This document shows positions 10,942 through 19,787 of a stretch of 64,000 nucleotides of DNA, in pieces. Positions within the stretch are counted from its first letter, which is position 1. Every line of letters begins with the position of its first letter. A program made the position numbers and the translations under genes. Origin of the DNA: Escherichia coli. GTDB taxonomy: Bacteria > Pseudomonadota > Gammaproteobacteria > Enterobacterales > Enterobacteriaceae. Below the pieces are notes generated by a model. That model was not told the DNA's origin and searched no databases. It saw only the letters and a list, made by a program, of their open reading frames with translations. The stretch lies in the NCBI RefSeq assembly GCF_044324875.1, contig NZ_CP172185.1, one strand, 5' to 3'.

Positions 10942-12228
10942 ATGGATGAATTCAAACCAGAAGACGAGCTGAAACCCGATCCCAGCGATCGTCGTACTGG
11001 TCGTTCTCGTCAATCTTCTGAACGTTCTGAGCGTACTGAACGTGGCGAACCGCAGATCAATTTTGATGATATTGAACTTGATGACACTGACGATCGCCGT
11101 CCGACTCGTGCGCAAAAAGAGCGCAATGAGGAACCGGAACTCGAAGAAGAAATTGACGAATCCGAAGATGAAACCGTGGATGAAGAGCGCGTAGAGCGTC
11201 GTCCGCGTAAGCGCAAAAAAGCAGCCAGTAAACCCGCTTCTCGTCAGTATATGATGATGGGCGTCGGCATTCTGGTTCTCCTGCTGTTGATTATCGGTAT
11301 CGGTTCTGCGCTAAAAGCCCCCTCGACCTCTTCCAGCGATCAAACCGCGTCTGGCGAGAAGAGTATTGATCTTGCTGGCAATGCGACCGATCAGGCGAAT
11401 GGCGTGCAGCCAGCACCGGGAACCACGTCTGCGGAAAATACTCAGCAGGATGTATCTCTGCCGCCGATCTCTTCTACGCCGACTCAAGGGCAAACCCCGG
11501 CGGCAACGGATGGTCAACAACGTGTTGAAGTGCAGGGTGACCTGAACAATGCGCTGACCCAGCCACAAAATCAGCAACAGTTGAACAATGTGGCGGTCAA
11601 TTCCACGTTGCCGACTGAACCCGCGACGGTCGCGCCTGTTCGCAATGGCAATGCATCGCGTGACACGGCGAAAACGCAAACCGCTGAACGTCCGGCCACC
11701 ACGCGTCCAGCTCGTCAGCAGGCGGTGATTGAACCGAAAAAACCGCAAGCAACCGTGAAAACGGAACCGAAGCCGGTAGCTCAGACGCCGAAGCGTATTG
11801 AACCAGCTGCTCCTGTGGCGAGCGCGAAGGCACCGGCTGCGACCTCTACGCCAGCACCAAAAGAGACCGCAACTACGGCTCCAGTACAGACGGCATCCCC
11901 GGCGCAAACCACGGCAACACCAGCCGCTGGAGGGAAGACCGCAGGTAATGTTGGTTCGTTGAAATCGGCACCGTCCAGCCATTACACTCTGCAGCTGAGC
12001 AGTTCCTCTAACTACGACAACCTGAACGGTTGGGCGAAGAAAGAGAATCTGAAAAACTACGTTGTCTATGAAACGACGCGTAATGGTCAGCCGTGGTATG
12101 TCCTGGTTTCTGGCGTGTACGCTTCGAAAGAAGAGGCGAAAAAAGCGGTATCTACATTGCCAGCAGATGTCCAGGCCAAAAACCCGTGGGCGAAACCGCT
12201 GCGTCAGGTACAGGCCGATCTGAAGTAA
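10942..12228 (+). CDS. damX: Cell-division protein DamX (SPOR domain)
   Basis: 428-aa ORF with an acidic N-terminus, one TM segment ([18 protein letters not shown]), a Pro/Thr/Gln-rich linker and a C-terminal SPOR-like domain ([21 protein letters not shown]). Confidence 0.95.
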
Positions 12229-12334: not shown

Positions 12335-13171
12335 ATGAAGAAAAATCGCGCTTTTTTGAAGTGGGCAGGGGGCAAGTATCCCCTGCTTGATGATATTAAA
12401 CGGCATTTGCCCAAGGGCGAATGTCTGGTTGAGCCTTTTGTAGGTGCCGGGTCGGTGTTTCTCAACACCGACTTTTCTCGTTATATCCTTGCCGATATCA
12501 ATAGCGACCTGATCAGTCTCTATAACATTGTGAAGATGCGTACTGATGAGTACGTACAGGCCGCACGCGAGCTGTTTGTTCCCGAAACAAATTGCGCCGA
12601 GGTTTACTATCAGTTCCGCGAAGAGTTCAACAAAAGCCAGGATCCGTTCCGTCGGGCGGTACTGTTTTTATATTTGAACCGCTACGGTTACAACGGCCTG
12701 TGTCGTTACAATCTGCGCGGTGAGTTTAACGTGCCGTTTGGCCGCTACAAAAAACCCTATTTCCCGGAAGCAGAGTTGTATCACTTCGCTGAAAAAGCGC
12801 AGAATGCCTTTTTCTATTGTGAGTCTTACGCCGATAGCATGGCGCGCGCAGATGATGCATCCGTCGTCTATTGCGATCCGCCTTATGCGCCGCTGTCTGC
12901 GACTGCCAACTTTACGGCGTATCACACAAACAGTTTTACGCTTGAACAACAAGCGCATCTGGCGGAGATCGCCGAAGGTCTGGTTGATCGCCATATTCCA
13001 GTGCTGATCTCCAATCACGATACGATGTTAACGCGTGAGTGGTATCAGCGCGCAAAATTGCATGTCGTCAAAGTTCGACGCAGTATAAGCAGCAACGGCG
13101 GCACACGTAAAAAGGTGGACGAACTGCTGGCTTTGTACAAACCAGGAGTCGTTTCACCCGCGAAAAAATAA
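12335..13171 (+). CDS. dam: DNA adenine methyltransferase (GATC)
   Basis: 278-aa ORF with the AdoMet motif EPFVGAGSV and the catalytic motif DPPY ([11 protein letters not shown]). Confidence 0.98.
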
Positions 13172-15774: not shown

Positions 15775-16680
15775 ATGCGTCGAACGTTTATCAAAAAAGA
15801 AGGCGTCGTCATCACGACACTGGCCCGTTATTTGTTGGGTGAAAAGTGCGGTAATCGACTGAAAACCATAGATGAGCTGGCAACTGAATGCCGTTCATCC
15901 GTTGGCCTGACGCAGGCCGCGTTGAAAACGCTGGAATCAAGCGGAGCGATACGGATTGAACGCCGTGGGCGCAATGGCAGTTATCTGGTCGAGATGGATA
16001 ACAAAGCATTGCTGACTCATGTGGATATCAACAACGTGGTATGTGCGATGCCCTTGCCCTATACCCGTTTGTACGAAGGCCTGGCGAGCGGATTGAAAGC
16101 CCAGTTCGATGGCATTCCTTTTTACTATGCGCATATGCGCGGCGCGGATATTCGCGTGGAGTGTTTACTTAACGGCGTGTATGACATGGCGGTTGTTTCC
16201 CGACTGGCGGCGGAAAGTTATCTCACGCAAAAAGGCTTATGCCTCGCGCTGGAGTTGGGGCCGCACACCTACGTTGGCGAGCACCAGTTGATTTGCCGTA
16301 AAGGCGAGTCCGCAAACGTGAAGCGCGTGGGGCTGGATAACCGTTCGGCGGATCAGAAAATCATGACCGATGTCTTTTTTGGCGATAGTGATGTGGAACG
16401 TGTCGATCTCTCTTATCACGAGAGTTTACAACGCATTGTTAAAGGCGATGTTGATGCGGTGATCTGGAACGTGGTGGCGGAAAACGAACTGACCATGCTG
16501 GGATTAGAAGCGACGCCGCTCACAGACGATCCGCGATTTTTACAGGCCACCGAAGCCGTGATCCTGACGCGAGTCGATGATTACCCAATGCAACAATTGC
16601 TGCGTGCAGTTGTTGATAAACAGGCCCTGCTTGCCCATCAACAACGAGTGGTCAGTGGGGAACAGGAACCCAGTTATTAA
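15775..16680 (+). CDS. yhfZ: Putative GntR-like winged-helix regulator YhfZ
   Basis: 301-aa ORF. The N-terminus (LKTIDELATECRSSVGLTQAALKTLESSGAIRIERRGRNGSYL) looks like a GntR-type wHTH. It is the first gene of the yhfZ-yhfS cluster, as in K-12. Confidence 0.85.
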   Translation: MRRTFIKKEGVVITTLARYLLGEKCGNRLKTIDELATECRSSVGLTQAALKTLESSGAIRIERRGRNGSYLVEMDNKALLTHVDINNVVCAMPLPYTRLYEGLASGLKAQFDGIPFYYAHMRGADIRVECLLNGVYDMAVVSRLAAESYLTQKGLCLALELGPHTYVGEHQLICRKGESANVKRVGLDNRSADQKIMTDVFFGDSDVERVDLSYHESLQRIVKGDVDAVIWNVVAENELTMLGLEATPLTDDPRFLQATEAVILTRVDDYPMQQLLRAVVDKQALLAHQQRVVSGEQEPSY

Positions 16681-16801
16681 ACGAAAGGCATCTGAAATGG
16701 AAACCAGACTCAACCTGCTTTGCGATGCAGGCGTTATTGATAAGGACATCTGCAAAGGCATGATGCAGGTCGTCAACGTACTGGAAACTGAGTGTCATCT
16801 A

Positions 16802-16807
16802 CCGGTG
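16802..16807. repeat. Target-site duplication CCGGTG (left copy)
   Basis: An identical hexamer directly abuts both IS ends. An adjacent A makes a 7-bp reading (ACCGGTG) possible if the IS is taken to end in ...TTTGC. Confidence 0.8.
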
Positions 16808-16880
16808 TGCGTATTCCGCTCTATTCGATCACGGATTGGCATCGAAGTCCGATCAGCGATTCGCATCCATTCGATCAACC
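16808..16880. repeat. IS end distal to istA: terminal IR plus about 3 subterminal repeats
   Basis: TGCGTATTCCGCTCT then ATTCGATCACGGATTGGCAT, TCCGATCAGCGATTCGCAT and ATTCGATCAACC. The repeats are about 23 bp apart and each contains a GATC (16827, 16851, 16873). Confidence 0.8.
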
Positions 16881-16906
16881 GGGAACTTAACTTTTTCTAC
16901 CGCTTT

Positions 16907-17662
16907 TTAACGCGTTTTTTCGCTGCTTTCCACTACCGGGGGATTTTTCCTCAGTGACTCTCCCTGAAGGACCACTCGGTGTGAGTTATGTACCAGTCTG
17001 TCCAGGATGGCATCTGCTGTTGTTGGGTTCTCCATCAGACCATGCCATTTATCTACCGGGAACTGGCTTACCACTATCGTGCTGCTTTGTCCGTAACGAT
17101 CCTCTATGAGCTCCAGAAGGTCATTACACTGGGCGTTACTTAACTGTTCCAGCCCCAGATCGTCCAGGATTAGAACCTGTATTTTTTGCAACTGTTTCAG
17201 ATATTTCAGCCAGCTGCCATCAACACGTCCCTGAGCCAGTTGTTCCAGTAATCGCCCGGTTCTACAGTACCGGACGCTGTGTTTCTGTCGACATGCCTGT
17301 TCGCCCAGCGCATTGGCTATCCAGCTCTTGCCACATCCTGTCGGACCGGTTATCAGCAGGTTTTTCCTGTGGGTTATGTAGTGGCCGTTCAGCAGTTCTC
17401 TCATCTGTTCAGCCCGCAGACCTCTTGAGGCCGGATAGCGCAGCCCTTCCGGTGTTGCCTGGTATTTCAGGCCGGCATTTTTTCTCAACCGTGCCACACG
17501 GCTGTTTTCCCTGCTCAGAAGCTCGTCATCAACCAGCAGCGTCAGCCTTTCCTCGAACGACAGTTCGTCGTAGGTCTGAGGCGTTTCCCGCTGCCGTATC
17601 AGGCTCCCGGCCATCGCCGGGAGTTTCAGTTGGGTCAGTTTGTTTAACAGGTTATCACTCAT
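16907..17662 (-). CDS. istB: IstB-like AAA+ ATPase transposition helper
   Basis: 251 aa counted from MSDNLLNKLTQLKLPAMAG, with Walker A (GPTGCGKS) and Walker B (VLILDDLG). It starts 16 nt after the istA stop codon, with aagga upstream. The track ORF carries an 81-codon overlap extension. Confidence 0.92.
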   Translation of the reverse strand: MSDNLLNKLTQLKLPAMAGSLIRQRETPQTYDELSFEERLTLLVDDELLSRENSRVARLRKNAGLKYQATPEGLRYPASRGLRAEQMRELLNGHYITHRKNLLITGPTGCGKSWIANALGEQACRQKHSVRYCRTGRLLEQLAQGRVDGSWLKYLKQLQKIQVLILDDLGLEQLSNAQCNDLLELIEDRYGQSSTIVVSQFPVDKWHGLMENPTTADAILDRLVHNSHRVVLQGESLRKNPPVVESSEKTR

Positions 17663-17678
17663 ACTGTTGTTCCTTCTG

Positions 17679-19214
17679 TCAGTGGTAGTAGCCCGGACCA
17701 CGCAGGTTTTCATGCTCTGAAGCATATGCCGGATGTTGTTCGCCCTGGCGGGATAATGGAAGCTCCAGGTTCTCCCGATGGTGACGCAGCAGATTGTCGA
17801 TAAAGCGTCTGTCAGGGGCGTTATAGTGCAGGGCAACGTAACAGGCCTTTTCCAGCCGTTCCGGGCCGTATTTTTTCTGAAGTGCCAGCAGCCCCAGAAC
17901 TGCACGATAAGCCAGTTCCGGATGGGGTTTTGCCTTCAGCATGGATTCAACCACCCGGCCTGTGGACGGGCCCGTACGTTTTCCCTGCTCGATCAGGCGT
18001 TCCGGTGTCCATGTCCCGTGCTGCCGGTGGCGCTCTGGCATGTGAAGCGGATTGGTTGTGTGTTTATATTCATGTGTGCTGCGCGGATGTTGCGCCACAC
18101 ACTGCCCCTTGTGCCAGAGCTGTACCACCGACTGCCCCGCCTTCAGTGACAGACGCTGACCGACCAGTTCGTGTGGAACGGAGTACCAGTGACGGGCATA
18201 TTCAACGTGGTAGTCAGGGCCAACCTTCACAGCTTTGTATTCCGTGTATTCATAAGGTGCCAGAGGCAGCGGAGAGAGTGCTGGCGCATCCAGTATGCGG
18301 AAGCGTTCTGCACGGGTTTGATTGCCGTACCCCTTCATTGGCCGGTTATTCATGTCTGTCAGTAACTCCCTAAGGCGCGCATTCAGCGCCCTGAGCGTGT
18401 GGAAGGTTTCATTACGGATGCGGGCAAGAAGCCATCGTTCAACGATGAGGACGCCGTTTTCTGCTTTTGGTTTATCTTTAGGTTTGCGTGGTCGGGCCGG
18501 GATGATAACCGTGCCATAGTGCTCAGCCAGTGCCTGATAACTGTCGTTGATGACAGGCTCATATCGATCGGCCTTTTTCACTGCGCTTCTGAGGTTATCG
18601 GGGATGAGCAGCTTCGGTACGCCGCCCAGGAAGGTCAGGCAACGGCTGTGGGCATTTAACCATGACATCATGTCCTGACCTTCGCACGCTTCAACGTAGG
18701 TATAGTTGGACGCCCCCATTACGGCCACGAAGATTGCCACGCGGCGTATCTCACCGGTGTCCGGATTAATAACAGGAACCGTAGGACCACAGAAGTCGAT
18801 AAAAAGCTTTTCGCCGGCACGATGCTCCTGGCGCATGGAGAGACGTCGCGTTTTTTTCCACTCCCGGTAGCAACGGCAGAAGTGCGAGTATCCCATCGCT
18901 TTGTTACCCGCCTGTGCCTTGTATTCCATCCACAACAGTTGCCGCGTCACACCTGGTTTTCTCATTTCCGTATCGAAGTACAACATGTCAGGCATTACAA
19001 GCTCTGATGCAAAGGTGTCTTTGGGCGGAAAAATGAGTTTCTCCAGCGTGTCATGGGATATATCAGCAGGTAATGGCCATGACAGAGAAGAGGCTTTGAA
19101 GCGGGCAAGAACCTCAAAAACGGTTGAGGCGCTGATGTGTAACGTCAGTCCGATACAACGGTTAGTCAGCTTCTTGTCGAACTTGAGCTGAAGGATCTTA
19201 AAACAGGTTTCCAT
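17679..19214 (-). CDS. istA: IstA-like DDE transposase
   Basis: 511 aa counted from METCFKILQLKF, with the SD sequence aggag 5 nt upstream. It has an N-terminal HTH region and an rve-type integrase core (FIDFCGP..., NYTYVEA..., PARPRKPKDKPKAENGV). The track ORF adds 37 codons that run into the terminal repeats. Confidence 0.9.
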   Translation of the reverse strand: METCFKILQLKFDKKLTNRCIGLTLHISASTVFEVLARFKASSLSWPLPADISHDTLEKLIFPPKDTFASELVMPDMLYFDTEMRKPGVTRQLLWMEYKAQAGNKAMGYSHFCRCYREWKKTRRLSMRQEHRAGEKLFIDFCGPTVPVINPDTGEIRRVAIFVAVMGASNYTYVEACEGQDMMSWLNAHSRCLTFLGGVPKLLIPDNLRSAVKKADRYEPVINDSYQALAEHYGTVIIPARPRKPKDKPKAENGVLIVERWLLARIRNETFHTLRALNARLRELLTDMNNRPMKGYGNQTRAERFRILDAPALSPLPLAPYEYTEYKAVKVGPDYHVEYARHWYSVPHELVGQRLSLKAGQSVVQLWHKGQCVAQHPRSTHEYKHTTNPLHMPERHRQHGTWTPERLIEQGKRTGPSTGRVVESMLKAKPHPELAYRAVLGLLALQKKYGPERLEKACYVALHYNAPDRRFIDNLLRHHRENLELPLSRQGEQHPAYASEHENLRGPGYYH

Positions 19215-19317
19215 AGTGCTCCTGGATTTTCTCTTTCTGGACATTGACGTCTCCACTGGTTTAAACACGGCAATGGAGACTGTGGTGAAAAGAGTTAATT
19301 CCCGGAGTGACTGGCAG

Positions 19318-19446
19318 GATGCCAATCAATGATCGGAAGCATGCCAAATCGTGATCGATTGTGATGCCAAACTGTGATCGGAGATGGATGCCAAATCATG
19401 ATCGATTCGAATGCCAAACTGCGATCGATTCAGATGCCATTTTGCA
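19318..19446. repeat. IS end proximal to istA: six phased copies of ATGCCAAAYNNYGATCGRWT ending in the terminal IR
   Basis: ATGCC cores lie at 19319, 19341, 19364, 19388, 19411 and 19434, giving a 22-24 bp period. Five of the six copies carry a GATC (19331, 19353, 19376, 19400, 19423). Confidence 0.85.
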
Positions 19447-19452
19447 CCGGTG
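19447..19452. repeat. Target-site duplication CCGGTG (right copy)
   Basis: The hexamer is identical to 16802-16807 and lies immediately outside the IS terminal ...TTTTGCA. Confidence 0.8.
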
Positions 19453-19787
19453 CGCAGCGAGCAAGGAATGATGGCGATGACACATATGGCGAGCGCACTG
19501 ATGCGCAGTCGCCGTGGTGAAGAAATAGAGCCGCTGGACGCCGAATTGCTGGCAGAACTGGCGCAATCCAGCCACTGGCAAGCCGTTGTGCAATTGCATC
19601 AGGTATTGTTGAAGGAATTTGCACTGGAAGTTAACTCGTGTGAAGAAGGCTATTTGCTGGCCAACCTTTATGGATTATGGATGGCCGCGAACGAAGAGGC
19701 CTGAAGCTCACTACAAATCCACGTCGCATATCTTAAATATTCAAAAAAATGAATATTTGATTCAAGGAACAGAAACGAGGCAACAAG

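Follow-up and report, generated by a model that had tools for sequence, protein, structure and literature searches.

The phased repeats at both ends of an insertion sequence in the dam region of Escherichia coli very probably serve as multiple terminal binding sites for the transposase IstA, and the GATC found in nearly all of them would be one of several alternative specificity codes of a conserved box, here called box A. This reading is drawn from the comparison of sequences across one subgroup of the IS21 family. The sequence-only reading of the window (the whole stretch of 64,000 nucleotides that was analysed, from contig NZ_CP172185.1) had already proposed that the ends carry multiple IstA-binding repeats, and this proposal gains support from the match to the family, from the two-box anatomy of the 23-bp repeats (PMC10122671), and from the co-variation of the box with a residue of IstA. 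The same reading had suggested that methylation of the GATC sites by Dam could modulate the binding of IstA or the transcription of istA. Such a control is possible but unsupported, and it is not indicated by the comparison.

The insertion sequence and its terminal repeats

The window covers the damX-dam-…-trpS-yhfZ region of E. coli (Table 1); the two open reading frames downstream of dam are in the positions of rpe and gph and are followed by trpS. At a distance of 3.6 kb from dam, the gene yhfY is interrupted by the insertion sequence and left as two fragments (16577-16807 and 19453-19704). In silico excision of the element together with one copy of the CCGGTG duplication yields a single intact yhfY-like open reading frame, which sits between yhfZ and yhfX. 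The limits of the element (16808 and 19446/19447) are the common ends of the full-length megablast matches of about 300 copies in other E. coli contexts and are supported by the 6-bp CCGGTG duplication. The tips read TGCG... and ...TGCA. Identical copies are labelled "IS21-like element ISSso4 family" in RefSeq, and megablast finds the element at 2957 places in 2026 of the 5426 complete E. coli genomes, a single genome having as many as 23 copies. As is expected of a mobile IS21-family element, the same sequence is thus present in many unrelated contexts. In addition, istA and istB are adjacent and both score above the NCBIfam cut-offs (160 bits for NF033546 and 200 bits for NF038214), the element has TG...CA inverted terminal repeats and a short target duplication, and inside each end there are direct repeats of ~23 bp with two conserved boxes per repeat, as the family is defined (PMC10122671). 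The insertion sequence is therefore an ordinary, catalogued element with the multi-repeat ends known for its family.

Table 1. Coordinates of the insertion sequence, its terminal units, and the neighbouring genes in the window
Feature	Position	Strand	Evidence or remark
damX, upstream of dam	10942-12228		
dam, host DNA adenine methyltransferase	12335..13171	+	NF008152, 582 bits
yhfZ, neighbour of interrupted yhfY	15775-16680		
Target-site duplication CCGGTG, copy 1, within yhfY	16802..16807		empty-site reconstruction
ISSso4-like IS21-family insertion sequence, 2639 bp, tips 5'-TG...CA-3'	16808..19446	-	~300 full-length E. coli copies
istB-proximal (right) end, three units R1-R3	16808..16878	+	
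Box B, R1-R3	16815-20 (TCCGCT), 16837-42 (TGGCAT), 16861-66 (TCGCAT)		
Box A (CGATCA), R1-R3	16826-32, 16850-56, 16872-78		
Sub-terminal block CCGGGAACTTAAC..., just inside the unit arrays	16879..16897		inverted repeat with 19287-19305
istB, 251 aa, AAA+ helper ATPase	16907..17662	-	NF038214, 258 bits
istA, 511 aa, DDE transposase with N-terminal HTH-1 and HTH-2	17679..19214	-	NF033546, 285 bits
Partner of the sub-terminal block, …GTTAATTCCCGG on the + strand	19287..19305		
istA-proximal (left) end, six units L1-L6	19307..19446	-	
Box A of L6, CAGTCAC in place of CGATCAC	19307-13		decayed GATC
Box A (CGATCR), L1-L5	19421-27, 19398-404, 19374-80, 19351-57, 19329-35		
Box B (TGGCAT), L1-L6	19434-39, 19411-16, 19388-93, 19364-69, 19341-46, 19319-24		
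Target-site duplication CCGGTG, copy 2	19447..19452		empty-site reconstruction
Next gene beyond interrupted yhfY	19788-20951		

Read from the tip inward, each unit is composed of box B (TGGCAT or TCGCAT), a spacer of 5-7 bp, and box A (CGATCA), which gives a unit length of 22-24 bp. At the istA end successive starts of box B are 23, 23, 24, 23, and 22 bp apart, and Tandem Repeats Finder returns a period of 23 for this array. The six ATGCC cores that the sequence-only reading had located at the istA end (19319, 19341, 19364, 19388, 19411, and 19434) are all present, as are the five GATC of this end (19331, 19353, 19376, 19400, and 19423) and the three of the istB end (16827, 16851, and 16873). 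The proposed 20-nt consensus describes five of the six copies with 0-2 mismatches; the sixth copy at the tip (19434) shares only ATGCCA with it and has nine mismatches. We prefer the order box B, spacer, box A because in both arrays the outermost box, at the tip, is a box B and the innermost is a box A. Nevertheless, the parse of the earlier reading, in which box A and the following box B form the unit, may be the right one, since each box A is followed by the next box B at a fixed distance and it is the spacer between box B and box A within our unit that varies by ±1 bp.

In the two-box parse eight of the nine units (L1-L6 and R1-R3) carry a GATC. The box A of the remaining unit L6 is intact as CGATCAC in a diverged E. 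coli relative (locus L089), which has a GATC in all six left units, and in an Enterobacter relative (locus L082); thus, one GATC has been lost from the element in the window. The bases flanking the GATC are conserved as well, with C at position -1 in 8/8 units and A at position +5 in 7/8. Just inside the arrays, the sub-terminal block common to both ends has the sequence CCGGGAAyTTAAC and is conserved in the same two relatives (L082 and L089).

The density of GATC at the ends had been called unusual, and the count is indeed high, with 8 GATC in 202 bp and a Poisson probability of 6e-6 when the average of the whole window, one GATC in 218 bp, is taken as the rate; this probability treats as independent events eight sites which are copies of one repeated unit. 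We also considered the density alone as an anomaly and rejected it: the five GATC in 129 bp tie the maximum of the window, and several other stretches of 129 bp reach four. What is unusual is the GATC at a fixed position of a strictly phased repeat, not the density alone. The window as a whole is rich in GATC, with 293 sites compared to 233 ± 14 in dinucleotide-preserving shuffles, none of which (0/100) reached 293.

Related elements and the box A code

A profile search with IstA in a collection of species-representative genomes yielded 80 loci with 43-54% identity. To these we added seven closer relatives (55-89% identity), three diverged E. coli copies, and 20 elements on plasmids of cultured isolates. 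The comparison of the ends refers to this IstA subgroup. Arrays with a period of 23 bp between the tip and istA were found in nearly all scorable ones (73) of the 80 genome loci and also in most of the 7 closer and 20 plasmid-borne relatives. These istA-end arrays are 75-135 bp long, lie between a TGCATATTCCGG-like tip and the start of istA, and usually consist of 4-6 direct units, with nine in a Citrobacter plasmid element; at the istB end there are usually 2-4 units. For the ends of IS21-family elements the textbook count is 2-3 repeats. Six copies are therefore at the high end when measured against the textbook, as the sequence-only reading had it, but they are normal for this IstA subgroup, in which the istA end as a rule has 4-6 direct units and may have up to nine.

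It had further been proposed to look for conservation of the GATC in related ends. In fact the GATC is kept in orthologues with 55-80% IstA identity, so that the lack of conservation which was to refute the earlier reading is not observed, while box B drifts: TTTGGCAT is replaced by TTTCGCAT in the Enterobacter (L082) and E. coli (L089) relatives, and box B reads ATTCCGA, again with the GATC retained, in Citrobacter and Sodalis relatives. Elements of the GAAC type likewise have a conserved box A and a drifting box B, so this behaviour is not peculiar to GATC. In one relative with 63% identity (L088) all units have switched to ACGAACA. Decay of the GATC is confined to pseudogenised copies (L090 and L091).

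Two observations concern the way in which the arrays vary. Copies of the same element (L061/L050 compared to L057/L040; L090, L091) differ by clean deletions of whole 23-bp units, from which it follows that the arrays expand and contract in steps of one unit. A second GATC position is found within the spacer, directly ahead of box A (gatcGTGAGCA, gatcGTGGGCA), in elements from Bradyrhizobium (L105), Pseudosulfitobacter (L106), and Roseomonas (L104) and in L057. This spacer GATC arises from a conserved ATCGTG context, and judged by taxonomy the hosts are not expected to have Dam. As some alphaproteobacterial units thus carry GATC elsewhere in the unit, a GATC arises easily in the sequence frame of the unit.

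Box A follows the frame G-x-y-C and then A. All units of one element have the same core, which varies from element to element and is of the types GATC, GAAC, GACC, GGCC, GGAC, GAGC, GTCC, and GGGC. From an alignment of 87 IstA sequences, thinned at 90% identity, we calculated the mutual information with the box A type for each of the 511 columns. Residue 29 (A29 in the window) comes out on top with 1.84 bits compared to <=1.39 bits for any other column (z = 3.8), and residue 30 is second after normalisation for column entropy. Arginine at residue 29 is found with GGAC, GGCC, and CTGCC, lysine or histidine with GACC and GTCC, valine, leucine, or threonine with GAAC, and proline (11), tyrosine (4), alanine, cysteine, or serine with GATC; the association of GATC with P/Y/A/C at this residue has a Fisher P of 2e-11. 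The 20 plasmid elements repeat the pattern, with exceptions: GGCC is paired with arginine in Pseudomonas, Aeromonas, and Azospirillum, GGGC with lysine in Roseomonas and Pseudosulfitobacter, GAGC with asparagine in Bradyrhizobium, GAAC with valine or threonine in ISAs29, Yokenella, and Citrobacter, and GATC with proline in ISEc12. The exceptions are valine with GATC in Burkholderiales and proline with CGCCCCC in Rhizobiales. In the wider set of relatives, cysteine occurs both with GATC (L085/86) and with GAAC (L088). As far as these sequences tell, the code is real but not one-to-one.

The structure of the IS5376 transpososome suggests how such a code might be read. There the repeats are 23 bp apart and have two conserved boxes each, CS1 and CS2; CS1 is bound by HTH-2 and CS2 by HTH-1 via the major groove, the base-contacting residues of IstA being R31, K32, T92, and K95 (PMC10122671). 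Of the subunits of the IstA tetramer, the catalytic one sits on the outer repeat and a structural one on the second repeat (PMC10122671). In a profile-to-PDB alignment, I27-S28-A29-S30-T31-V32 of the window IstA fall on I29-D30-R31-K32-T33-V34 of IS5376, and by this register residues 29 and 30 would be the equivalents of R31 and K32 of HTH-1, which contact CS2. The alignment of the N-terminal HTH has a non-significant domain score of -2.7, with a register that is canonical for a helix-turn-helix, and a single-sequence search of the PDB with IstA aligned the catalytic core only and gave no N-terminal match. The assignment of box A to HTH-1 therefore takes the weak N-terminal alignment and the co-variation together. 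Since the core of box A co-varies with the residue that aligns to the DNA-contacting R31, we suggest that GATC is a specificity variant read by HTH-1.

In a neighbour-joining tree of IstA the GATC type is found on several separate branches. These are the Enterobacterales group, Brumicola, an Oceanospirillaceae MAG, Vibrio, a marine gammaproteobacterial MAG group, a Colwellia/Psychromonas/Paraglaciecola group that includes an ISEc12-like box B, and a Vicinamibacterales copy whose sister has arginine and CTGCC.

By analogy to IS5376 we propose the following arrangement for the ends in the window. Box B (TGGCAT), which is nearer to the tip, would correspond to CS1 and be bound by HTH-2, and box A (CGATCA) beyond the spacer would correspond to CS2 and be bound by HTH-1. 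As in the cryo-EM tetramer, the catalytic IstA subunits would be positioned at the TG/CA tips by the outermost units, L1 and R1, whereas the structural subunits would sit on L2 and R2. The further units L3-L6 and R3 are candidate accessory sites, which may load extra IstA and wrap the DNA in 23-bp phase, and their occupancy between the tip and istA could damp the expression of istA. The central AT of the GATC would be read by Ala29 at the start of the recognition helix of HTH-1, and the alternative box A codes would keep co-resident members of the family from cross-reacting.

If so, residue 29 of HTH-1 and the two central bases of box A would constitute a simple recognition code for IstA. It may explain how numerous IS21-family elements live side by side without mobilising one another, and it could be of use in the engineering of orthogonal pairs of IstA and ends. 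For specialists this code of one residue and two bases may be of more interest than a role of Dam.

Dam methylation and other possible explanations of the GATC

The clustering of Dam sites would follow from a GATC code that is repeated nine times, and it is not in itself evidence of a control by Dam. Recognition by IstA would also explain the conservation of GATC in the orthologues, and Dam is therefore not needed to account for it; the conserved bases that flank the GATC are not needed by Dam either.

The main alternative is that the GATC sites themselves are selected and that their N6-methylation alters the binding of IstA or the transcription of istA. The ends would then be competent for transposition only in the hemimethylated state that directly follows the passage of the replication fork, as in IS10, IS50, and IS903, and the precedent of Tn10/IS10 has been reviewed (PMC5371812). 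The host is Dam+, with dam inside the window, and as in Dam-regulated elements the GATC lies within a putative transposase-binding end sequence (box A in eight units). Moreover, its position coincides with the base pairs that vary together with the HTH-1 recognition residue, and the methyl groups would fall into the contacted major groove. The conservation of GATC in the Enterobacterales orthologues and a second plasmid element of E. coli and Klebsiella of the GATC type, ISEc12, are also in line with this proposal.

If methylation were the reason for the GATC, however, the end-repeat GATC should be tied to hosts that methylate GATC, and it is not. Equally regular GATC units are present in hosts outside the Dam clade, in IS408, ISBmu3, and ISRme9. 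The left end of IS408 from B. multivorans ATCC 17616 (pTGL1 copy) has 11 GATCs in ~150 bp. For this strain the motifs reported from its SMRT methylome are CACAG, GTWWAC, and CCA-N6-RTTC, not GATC; RGATCY is reported only in another species, and B. cenocepacia likewise has no reported GATC motif. A complete copy of the GATC type with its own target duplication is found in a closed Vicinamibacterales chromosome. Conversely, boxes other than GATC are present in many relatives from Dam+ hosts, namely Idiomarina, Alishewanella, Alteromonas, and one Vibrio, and also in Rahnella, Aeromonas, Yokenella, Citrobacter, and ISAs29. Between GATC-type elements of Dam+ and Dam- hosts we found no consistent difference at residue 29, and proline occurs in both.

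A count of lineages seems at first to favour an association with Dam. GATC-type lineages number 5/12 in Dam-bearing orders compared to 3/32 elsewhere (odds ratio 6.9, P = 0.025, Fisher), but this count is biased, because the loci were chosen by their similarity to a GATC-type query. Several of the hosts are MAG bins on short contigs, and the Dam status of the hosts was taken from taxonomy. We do not trust the host association obtained from this test, and the plasmid sample then gave GATC-type elements in Burkholderiales.

Further points against such a gate come from the element itself. It is very successful in Dam+ E. coli, where it reaches the copy numbers given above. A consensus scan of the whole element for σ70-like promoters found none, so that no GATC can be assigned to an istA promoter. 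Because the units are inverted between the two ends, each hemimethylated sister should carry opposite hemimethylation states at its two ends, and a strand-specific binding in the manner of IS10 could therefore favour no more than one end of a given sister. A Dam gate would work only through a general preference for DNA that is "not fully methylated". Our literature search found no report linking IS21-family elements to Dam or GATC and nothing relevant on ISSso4. Taken together we regard the gating of transposition by Dam as unlikely.

This judgement concerns regulation and not the chemistry of the sites. As the host is Dam+, the eight GATCs are presumably methylated at the positions that IstA would read, and because the methyl groups fall on these read-out positions a measurable effect of methylation on the binding of IstA is quite possible. 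Should IstA distinguish the methylation states, the GATC-type IS21 ends of Dam+ hosts (ISSso4-like, ISEc12) might act as a cooperative multi-site epigenetic switch, a proposal which we consider rather improbable. Such a switch, possibly reinforced by SeqA, would tie the assembly of the transpososome to replication. It would make the element the first of the IS21 family known to be under the control of Dam, and its architecture would differ from that of the single-site switches of IS10 and IS50. ISSso4-like elements and ISEc12 are common on chromosomes and resistance plasmids of E. coli and Klebsiella, and their transposase sites are presumably Dam-methylated; a contrast with IS408 and its relatives, whose hosts have no reported GATC methylation, could reveal an influence of adenine methylation on a transposase of the IS21 type, or the lack of one.

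Far less probable is a sequestration by SeqA, in which the cluster of hemimethylated GATCs would be bound by SeqA after replication and the ends and the region upstream of istA would be transiently hidden, in the way known from the dnaA promoter and oriC. Binding of SeqA requires at least two hemimethylated GATCs that lie within ~31 bp and roughly on the same face of the helix. The host is Dam+ and five GATC in 96 bp, spaced by 22-24 bp, would offer such sites, but a spacing of 23 bp corresponds to 2.2 turns, which does not place them exactly on one face, and the same architecture occurs in hosts that presumably lack Dam and SeqA. Finally, the view that a unit containing a GATC was amplified by chance, with the GATC itself unselected, is already disfavoured and barely credible: repeat amplification multiplies whatever a unit contains and a 23-bp unit has a ~9% chance of a GATC at the rate of the window, but the GATC persists at 55-80% IstA identity where other positions of the unit diverge, is uniform across the units of an element, co-varies with residue 29, and decays only in the pseudogenised copies (L090, L091).

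Known elements and the region upstream of istA

IS21/IS5376 (cryo-EM 8B4H) are close to the element in organization, having istA-istB, TG..CA tips, and ~23-bp direct repeats at both ends (L1-L2/L3 and R1-R2). In IS5376, as in the window, each repeat has two boxes about one helical turn apart, and those of IS5376 are bound by the tandem HTH domains of IstA (PMC10122671). The element of the window differs in having 6 + 3 units, compared to "usually at least two" in IS21/IS5376, and in the size of IstA (511 aa compared to 400 aa in IS5376), where significant alignment (E = 1e-14 to 1e-21) is limited to the catalytic core. Its predicted HTH-1 box combines a GATC core with alanine, where IS5376 has Arg31. 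The ends of phage Mu and Tn7 are similar in that they are asymmetric arrays with multiple MuA or TnsB sites at each end, used by a tandem-HTH transposase with an AAA+ partner (PMC10122671), but their sites are irregularly spaced and sometimes inverted, whereas the array in the window is a strict 23-bp direct array.

Within the IstA subgroup, IS408 and ISBmu3 from Burkholderia and ISRme9 from Cupriavidus share the 23-bp units and have the box A CGTGATCA. Their istA end has four direct and 3-4 inverted units and their opposite end 2-3 units, with a GATC in every unit and, in part of the IS408 array, two per unit. They differ from the element in the window by their hosts, which are Betaproteobacteria without reported GATC methylation, by a valine at residue 29, and by the inner inverted units, which the window element does not have. 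ISEc12 from plasmids of E. coli and Klebsiella is an IS21-family element of a Dam+ host as well and carries a GATC in every unit; its IstA is 47% identical and has a proline at residue 29, its box B is AATAACAT, and it has one inverted unit.

IS10/Tn10, IS50/Tn5, and IS903 share with the element of the window the GATC within the transposase-binding end sequence and the Dam+ host. In these three elements the GATCs number one or two and are located at a single end, the inner one, and in the promoter of the transposase, and effects of dam have been demonstrated. The window element has eight GATC placed symmetrically at both ends, with none identified in a promoter, and a transposase of another family.

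Inverted units are a recurrent feature of the relatives. Many of them (L003, L014, L030, L037, L057, L101-L103, and others) have 1-4 such units between the direct array and istA, located ~60-140 bp upstream of istA; in L003 from Vibrio they are at -132 and -111. IS408 and ISRme9 have 3-4, and the element in the window has none. These inverted units are candidate operator or accessory sites.

The start of istA deserves a remark. An in-frame ATG on the minus strand at 19244 lies 10 codons upstream of the istA ATG at 19214 and would extend the protein to MSRKRKSRST-METCF.... The annotated start (19214) has its own AGGAG. The extension of 10 codons is kept in relatives, and many annotated IstA proteins begin 7-11 codons upstream. 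IS21 has two isoforms of IstA, transposase and cointegrase, which are 8 N-terminal residues apart, and the alternative start in the window recalls this pair. Between the repeat array and istA there is also an inverted repeat, GTCTCCA…TGGAGAC, at 19249-19280, and four relatives whose ends are 72-80% related have kept it. RNAalifold predicts for this repeat a hairpin of 8 bp with one compensatory pair and a consensus energy of -10.8 kcal/mol, composed of folding and covariation terms. It could be a hairpin in the 5'-UTR or a protein-binding palindrome.
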